Of a stretch of DNA of 32,000 bases, positions 2,417-3,026 are shown in pieces. The stretch covers positions 5,070,001 through 5,102,000 of the forward strand of contig NZ_LN831024.1 in NCBI RefSeq assembly GCF_001457615.1, read 5' to 3'. Below the pieces are notes generated by a model. The model was given only the letters and a program-made list of their open reading frames with translations, was not told the origin of the DNA and ran no database searches. The DNA is from Pseudomonas aeruginosa. GTDB lineage: Bacteria; Pseudomonadota; Gammaproteobacteria; Pseudomonadales; Pseudomonadaceae. Each line of letters begins with the position of its first letter. Within the stretch, counting starts at the first letter, position 1. A program made the translations under genes and the position numbers.

Positions 2417-3026
2417 ATGACCGTAGACCGCATCGGCGAACGCCTGCGTCGCTATCGCCGCGCCGACCGTAGACCGCATCGGCGAACGCCTGCGTCGCTA
2501 TCGCCGCGCCGCCAAGAAGACCCTGCACCAAGTCGCCAGCGAATCCGGTCTCACCGCGAGCTTCCTCTCCCAGGCGGAGCGCAACCTCACCGGTGTATCG
2601 ATCTCTTCCCTGGCCAACATCGCCAAGTCGCTGAATATCCCGCTCAATGCCCTGTTCGACCAACCGGCACAACCCCAGCCCGACTCCCACGAAGGCGAGC
2701 GGGTACGCTACACCATCGAGGGCCAGCCGCTGGCCTACGAACGCCTGTCCAGCTCCTTCCCCGGCAACCTGATCAATGCGGTCAAGATGAACATGCCGGT
2801 GGGCTACCAGTCGGAGCTGATCTCCCATGAGGGCGCCGAGTTCTCCTACGTCCTGTCCGGGCAGATCGTCTACACCATCGAGGGGCGCCAGTACCCCCTC
2901 GGCGCCGGCGACTCGGTGCACTTCGACGCGACCAAGACCCATTGCCTGGCCAACGTCGGCAGCGATGTGGCGGAAGTCCTGACCATCACCACCATGGGCC
3001 TGTTCGACGACCATCCGACGCCCTGA
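2417..3026 (+). pseudogene. psdR: psdR, XRE-HTH + cupin repressor of dipeptide uptake, frameshifted by a 46-bp tandem duplication
   Basis: Two ORF fragments in different frames (2417-2830, nonsense after codon 16; 2787-3026, cupin C-terminus). Deleting one 46-bp copy restores a single 187-aa ORF, MTVDRIGERLRRYRRAAKKTLHQVASESGLTASFLSQAERNLTGVSISSLANIAKSLNIPLNALF...cupin...TTMGLFDDHPTP. Confidence 0.85.
2419..2510. repeat. Perfect 46-bp direct tandem duplication (2419-2464 = 2465-2510)
   Basis: GACCGTAGACCGCATCGGCGAACGCCTGCGTCGCTATCGCCGCGCC occurs twice back to back with 46/46 identity. A further G at 2511 extends the match to 47 nt. 46 is not a multiple of 3. Confidence 0.97.

Follow-up and report, generated by a model that had tools for sequence, protein, structure and literature searches.

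A perfect 46-bp tandem duplication frameshifts psdR in one Pseudomonas aeruginosa lineage and very probably removes the PsdR repressor

In the social evolution of Pseudomonas aeruginosa on protein, psdR loss is a textbook first step, by which the private use of dipeptides goes up. Asfahl 2015 is said to have described psdR loss-of-function alleles from PAO1 evolved on casein. Selection for psdR loss on casein or dipeptides is recurrent (PMC7078477, PMC8863103, PMC4858143), and the preliminary description of the DNA treated here summarized this literature rightly for casein and protein media. The alleles from casein-evolved PAO1 consist of SNPs, 1–4-bp indels and an 18-bp in-frame deletion (Robinson 2020, PMC7078477; Smalley 2022, PMC8863103). 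Those evolved on Gly-Glu are missense and nonsense changes and a 76-nt deletion, with operon duplication afterwards (Toll-Riera 2016, PMC4858143). A Met111fs change is found in psdR of ciprofloxacin-passaged ATCC 27853 (10.64898/2026.07.29.741402), and psdR lesions are reported in the literature from clinical isolates too.

PsdR binds as a dimer to the palindrome TTAAG-N5-CTTAA in the mdpA and dppA3 promoters and represses both (PMC7901475; PMC10965056). Genome-wide binding and expression data show two local PsdR sites and two local targets, mdpA and dppA3 (PMC7901475). lasR is a further direct target of PsdR repression, and psdR loss also raises quorum-sensing output through lasR (PMC10965056, PMC11968183). 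The neighboring opdP-dppA4 and dppBCDF genes are separate transcription units (PMC4206461).

The window, i.e., the whole stretch of DNA that was analyzed, consists of 32,000 nt of the P. aeruginosa contig NZ_LN831024.1. psdR is situated between mdpA and dppA3, and dppA3 is followed by opdP, dppA4 and dppBCDF. The features at the locus are as follows.

1031–2248, minus strand: mdpA, M24 metallo-dipeptidase, 405 aa, intact, divergent from psdR
2417–3026, plus strand: psdR pseudogene, 610 nt compared with 564 nt in the intact allele
2417–2830, plus strand: open reading frame as it stands, 137 aa, with 16 native residues followed by out-of-frame residues
2419–2464, plus strand: 46-bp unit GACCGTAGACCGCATCGGCGAACGCCTGCGTCGCTATCGCCGCGCC, copy 1, whose first base is the G of the psdR ATG and which codes for native residues 2–16
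2465–2510, plus strand: copy 2 of the 46-bp unit, identical to copy 1, which shifts the frame by +1
2787–3026, plus strand: 79-aa open reading frame that starts at the first start codon available in the native frame, with a Pfam match to Cupin_2 only
3292–4893, plus strand: dppA3, dipeptide-binding protein, 533 aa, intact, downstream of psdR

The 46-mer at positions 2419–2464 and the 46-mer at 2465–2510 are the same with zero mismatches; TRF gives a period of 46, 2.0 copies and 100% matches. The match runs one base past copy 2 (G at 2511), so the boundaries of the duplication are ambiguous by 1 nt. The 32-kb window contains no other exact tandem repeat of at least 25 nt, and at its composition about 1e-19 exact 46-nt tandems are expected by chance. 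A perfect duplication starting at the G of the ATG had been described before, and every detail of it is confirmed by the sequence. The left edge of the duplication is inside the start codon, and CC, not AT, precedes copy 2, so that copy 2 does not bring a second ATG. The junction displays a single nucleotide of microhomology and there is no flanking direct repeat. Such short microhomology points to slippage during replication or to a template switch as the probable origin. An origin by slippage between direct repeats on either side was considered and rejected in view of the 1 nt microhomology and an ancestral sequence that has no 46-nt-spaced repeat.

Deletion of one 46-bp copy produces a 564-nt open reading frame of 187 aa. 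The repaired protein agrees at every residue with the one named 'transcriptional regulator PsdR' in public sources, a canonical sequence found on at least 1000 contigs. The identification of the gene as psdR (the PA4499 orthologue) thus holds, by the exact match of the repaired protein and by its position between mdpA and dppA3, and so does the expectation that removal of one copy yields a 187-aa protein with helix-turn-helix and cupin domains. Pfam analysis of the repaired protein shows HTH_3, HTH_19 and HTH_31 at residues 6–67 and Cupin_2 at residues 109–175. The best NCBIfam match is PuuR, which is under its cut-off, and residues 5–75 align to the SinR HTH DNA-binding domain. There is no solved structure of PsdR.

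Translation of the allele as it stands begins at ATG 2417 with MTVDRIGERLRRYRRA, continues with 121 out-of-frame residues and ends at the TGA at 2828–2830, for a total of 137 aa. As 46 is a multiple of 3 plus 1, translation leaves the frame after 16 native codons, i.e., from the psdR start codon only 16 of the 187 native residues are translated, as had been predicted. No single uninterrupted psdR reading frame spans both domains, the frame being lost after codon 16. The out-of-frame part is 34% Arg+Pro. The 137-aa frame has a GC3 of 0.48 compared with 0.88 in the true frame of psdR, and for this reason gene callers would not emit it. It has neither a Pfam nor an NCBIfam match, which agrees with the earlier statement that the XRE helix-turn-helix is read as nonsense.

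The native downstream frame is shut upstream by TGA 2418 and TAG 2424. The preliminary description noted these stops and the lack of ATG and GTG before 2787; TTG is absent as well, up to the ATG at 2787. The longest product expected by that description, a 79-aa cupin stub, corresponds to the open reading frame at 2787–3026, which matches Cupin_2 alone, and no recognizable ribosome-binding site is found upstream of it. Another candidate, rescue through the ATGA stop-start overlap at 2827–2830, was rejected: its ATG is in the third frame and opens a 51-aa nonsense frame.

A comparison with orthologous loci shows the ancestral state. In species-representative Pseudomonadaceae genomes, all 76 psdR orthologues have the single-copy N-terminus (MT[VA][DE][RQ]IGERLRR[YH]RRAA...) and none has a tandem repeat within psdR. 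P. paraeruginosa (PsdR 99%) and 75 other species are among these 76 loci. The P. aeruginosa species representative, which would be expected as the best match, is missing from them, and this agrees with the source of the window being masked in that collection. The other P. aeruginosa psdR loci (47 of 47) have at most one copy of the 46-bp unit, and the few that do not have the exact unit differ by point changes or small indels inside it. An alignment to reference psdR alleles, which the preliminary description proposed as a check, has no second copy in any of the 47 P. aeruginosa loci or the 76 orthologues.

The allele was also searched for more widely. A 30-mer across the junction is absent from the collections of genome contigs and metagenome contigs. 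The 137-aa sense frame and a 218-aa antisense frame, both of which run across the duplication, have no exact record in a collection of 5.8 billion protein clusters, and a homology search with the 137-aa product matches only other psdR frameshift alleles. The 79-aa stub is called as a gene on 67 contigs, and the 10 contigs listed carry psdR lesions other than the duplication. A published description of a 46-bp psdR duplication was not found in a full-text literature search, whose reach did not extend to Asfahl 2015 and Kostylev 2019. Judged from these comparisons, the duplication is a derived state that is so far confined to one lineage.

The operator motif from PMC10965056 and PMC7901475 was used to scan the window. 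Three matches are present where 0.04 are expected, and all are in the two intergenic regions beside psdR.

2282–2296, plus strand: putative PsdR operator TTAAGTCGAGCTTAA, perfect TTAAG-N5-CTTAA, mdpA-psdR intergenic region
2316–2330, plus strand: operator-like site TTCAGTCACACTTAA, one mismatch, mdpA-psdR intergenic region
3115–3129, plus strand: operator-like site TTCAGCATGACTTAA, one mismatch, psdR-dppA3 intergenic region

The site at 2282–2296 overlaps a promoter-like site for mdpA. In the scan of the window, no operator motif is found upstream of opdP-dppA4 or of dppBCDF. The earlier proposal that the whole flanking dipeptide regulon is derepressed was an overstatement in this respect: operators are found only beside psdR, and the direct targets are mdpA and dppA3 (PMC7901475) and lasR (PMC10965056). 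With intact operators in the promoters on both sides, the defect is one of the trans-acting repressor. Constitutive expression of mdpA and dppA3 would be expected in this strain, and lasR expression may be raised, following PMC10965056 and PMC11968183.

The duplication takes the whole XRE helix-turn-helix out of any translatable product, and a null allele is a well-supported reading. The knock-out of psdR proposed at the outset is likewise well supported, in that the HTH (about residues 6–68) is lost and the flanking operators are intact. In the proposed sequence of events, the 46-bp segment that opens with the last base of the psdR start codon would have been duplicated in tandem in the NZ_LN831024.1 lineage. 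Ribosomes starting at the sole start codon would then read 16 native codons followed by nonsense, and the XRE helix-turn-helix and the cupin would never be joined in one protein. With the repressor lost and the operators in place, mdpA and dppA3 would be constitutive, and lasR would be raised as in published work. It is thus very probable that this is a derived, strain-specific allele in which the 46-bp duplication frameshifts psdR, with loss of the repressor and derepression of mdpA and dppA3.

Other lesions in psdR are common. Public P. aeruginosa genomes contain at least 15 further independent ones (L001–L010, L101; proteins P0003, P0180–P0182). In isolates these include start-codon loss (A1C, G3A), a nonsense change (C214T), indels of 1 bp near nt 41 and in nt 174–217, and deletions of 11 bp and 22 bp; a frameshift in the cupin domain is carried on 37 contigs. 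Every lesion is a different mutation and none is the 46-bp duplication. Among loci chosen irrespective of psdR status, 36 of 37 are intact and one is frameshifted. The evolved isolates TR18-21 (n=4) have an unresolved contig gap inside psdR (PMC7078477). Such a gap is what a short-read assembler does with a tandem duplication; there is no link of TR18-21 to the 46-bp allele.

The strain background can be approached through the neighboring alleles. The PAO1-sized genome L118 differs from the window by 307 mismatches in 15.7 kb (about 2%), and a PAO1 background was rejected on this divergence. The closest DNA loci among those listed differ by 41–45 SNPs per approximately 20 kb, with the exact MdpA, OpdP, LysE, DppC and PxpB alleles as handles. 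The less common protein alleles of the window have two series of accessions.

LysE, rare allele: AKO88682 and CKI12587
PxpC, rare allele: AKO88684 and CKI12627
PxpB, rare allele: AKO88685 and CKI12642
PepSY flavoprotein, rarer allele: AKO88688 and CKI12694
PiuD, rarer allele: AKO88689 and CKI12714

Along the genome the AKO numbers (AKO88682-89) run consecutively, and those of the CKI series track the gene order. The 79-aa psdR stub is CKI12408.1, at the right distance upstream within the CKI series, which we take to be that of NCTC 10332 (LN831024), the genome that usually represents the species. A split psdR is therefore present in an annotated genome, either a clone-mate or the source of the window. 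From the allele matches, the rare alleles of the window are likely those of the type strain DSM 50071T, and the window likely belongs to a long-kept culture-collection lineage. The origin first suggested for this DNA, a laboratory-evolved or protein-adapted lineage, is at best half right: a laboratory lineage is plausible in view of the type-strain DSM 50071T alleles, but the strain is not PAO1, in which the casein experiments were done, and one of 37 unselected genomes also has a disrupted psdR.

The window is a mosaic. Its DppC (9307–10218) is a common allele that is also present in the PAO1-sized L118, and it differs by 4–5 residues from that of the strains that are closest elsewhere, whereas LysE, PxpB and PxpC are rare alleles. 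The mosaic of DppC and its rare neighbors suggests past recombination within the dpp cluster. At 20064–22364 on the minus strand is a TonB-dependent receptor, the 766-aa form named PiuD. The same position in L109, L112 and L113 has a 753-aa receptor that differs at 286 residues; as read from the sequences, this is an allelic replacement and not point divergence.

Several other repeats and insertions are found in the window or its counterparts. dppA3 (window positions 3303–4854) has approximately 90% DNA identity over 1.5 kb to dppA1 of L088–L125, and dppA1 is just upstream of the window. The dppA3/dppA1 pair is likely a recombination substrate for the 5.6-kb operon duplications that follow psdR loss on Gly-Glu (PMC4858143). 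A 113-bp tandem repeat at 16904–17222 has 2.8 copies with 94% matches and two short palindromes per unit. It is located between an Asp/Arg-hydroxylase-like gene (15986–16885) and a PepSY-flavodoxin reductase gene (17296–19848, minus strand). In other strains the start of the downstream gene shifts in steps of about 111–119 bp and BLAST alignments break at the repeat, from which its copy number appears to vary between strains (a VNTR). Mu-like transposable prophages (HTH_Tnp_Mu_1, rve, Mu-transpos_C and S24 repressor) are present in the neighborhood in two other strains. L124 has a Mu-like prophage at 1–2843, with homology to the window resuming at about 4532, and L117 has one at 1–5536; one interrupts dppA3 and the other adjoins the 113-bp repeat region (L124, L117). 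An Rfam scan of the window gave zero matches.

That the duplication is an artefact of assembly or consensus, with a single-copy, intact psdR in the real genome, would be consistent with an allele found nowhere else in the searched collections, and with a likely source lineage that is long-read only, DSM 50071T having been sequenced on PacBio RS II only. There are 1-bp psdR deletions in two other long-read culture-collection assemblies (L004, L005), and these may be consensus errors. However, the usual consensus error of long reads is a 1-bp homopolymer indel, unlike a perfect 46-bp tandem copy within coding sequence that is otherwise free of repeats; assemblers of short reads collapse repeats of this kind and do not create them; and the annotated clone-mate or source genome bears the matching 79-aa stub call, all of which make an artefact quite improbable. 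The chance is smaller still, and very slight, that some PsdR function persists through non-canonical initiation in copy 2, ribosomal frameshifting or the 79-aa cupin fragment. Near-cognate ATC (2454, 2478) and CTG (2490) codons precede the HTH in the native frame, but they have no ribosome-binding site and are inside a frame that is translated differently; the 79-aa product still matches Cupin_2 but has no DNA-binding domain, and repression by PsdR is by a dimer on the palindromic operator TTAAG-N5-CTTAA (PMC7901475; PMC10965056).

Why and when the allele arose we infer, and laboratory selection of the duplication is plausible. A real mutation that was never selected, neutral or slightly deleterious and fixed by single-colony bottlenecks or natural drift, is a possibility to be taken seriously, if the less probable one. 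Its confinement to one lineage is consistent with this, as are the report that a psdR deletion has no phenotype in assays of general fitness, infection and antibiotics (PMC7901475) and the finding of disrupted psdR in only 1 of 37 unselected genomes. Against it are the 15 or more independent lesions in public genomes, the sweep of psdR lesions within days on casein (PMC7078477, PMC8863103), and their appearance on Gly-Glu (PMC4858143) and in serially passaged ATCC 27853 (10.64898/2026.07.29.741402). Lesions that recur in this way speak for frequent positive selection where peptides are plentiful. A different view of the allele is that of a reversible off-switch, in which precise loss of one copy restores psdR and the lineage toggles between repressed and derepressed states. 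A pair of identical 46-bp direct repeats offers a substrate for precise deletion, and the protein encoded after loss of one copy is exactly that of the wild type; there is also a precedent in tandem duplications of Ralstonia solanacearum phcA that revert in the plant, according to the citation of Poussier 2003 in 10.1101/2023.04.27.538605. A contingency locus, however, has a repeat tract in its normal allele with a copy number that varies between strains, whereas wild-type psdR has no pre-existing repeat tract and there is no copy-number polymorphism in the 47 P. aeruginosa loci or the 76 orthologues. The duplication has the properties of a one-off mutation and not of an evolved contingency locus, and a switch is unlikely.

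The duplication allele is of importance chiefly as a caveat on the type strain, or on its genome, as a wild-type reference. If the allele belongs to the type strain (DSM 50071 = ATCC 10145 = NCTC 10332), this reference would differ from wild type in dipeptide metabolism and possibly also in the quorum-sensing threshold, and comparisons that use it as a reference would mis-score psdR. Short-read pipelines tend to miss short tandem duplications; compare the psdR contig gap in the four evolved isolates (PMC7078477). A more speculative proposal, which has a small chance of being right, is that the type strain is psdR-null by a reversible duplication and that its cultures are mixtures of PsdR-off and PsdR-on cells, with the medium deciding which is dominant. 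If so, PsdR-off cells would have derepressed dipeptide uptake and a quorum-sensing threshold lowered through lasR, and the duplication would represent a de novo switch on a regulator that ties private nutrient use to cooperative behavior.

Compared with described systems, the allele is closest to those of PAO1 evolved on casein or Gly-Glu. The gene and the predicted outcome are the same (loss of the repressor and derepression of mdpA and dppA3), and frameshifts are common among these alleles, but no tandem duplication has been described there and the PAO1 background is about 2% divergent from the window. The natural psdR lesions in isolates are similar in that the same reading frame is disrupted independently. 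The mexT and lasR indels in laboratory P. aeruginosa sublines (PMC9041413; PMC11040156) also show a similarity: regulators gain small indels or repeats during maintenance, and these silently alter the quorum-sensing and metabolic phenotypes of reference strains. They differ in that other genes are affected and that the differences were recorded among sublines of a single strain. phcA of Ralstonia solanacearum, as far as it is described in the source cited above, is a regulator that a short tandem duplication within the gene inactivates in culture, and loss of a copy can reverse the lesion. The organism, regulator family and phenotype are different, and reversion has been shown for phcA, whereas for psdR it is a prediction from the sequence. 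The short tandem duplication is an addition to the known mutational spectrum of psdR, and represents a new allele of a well-known loss class and not a new mechanism.
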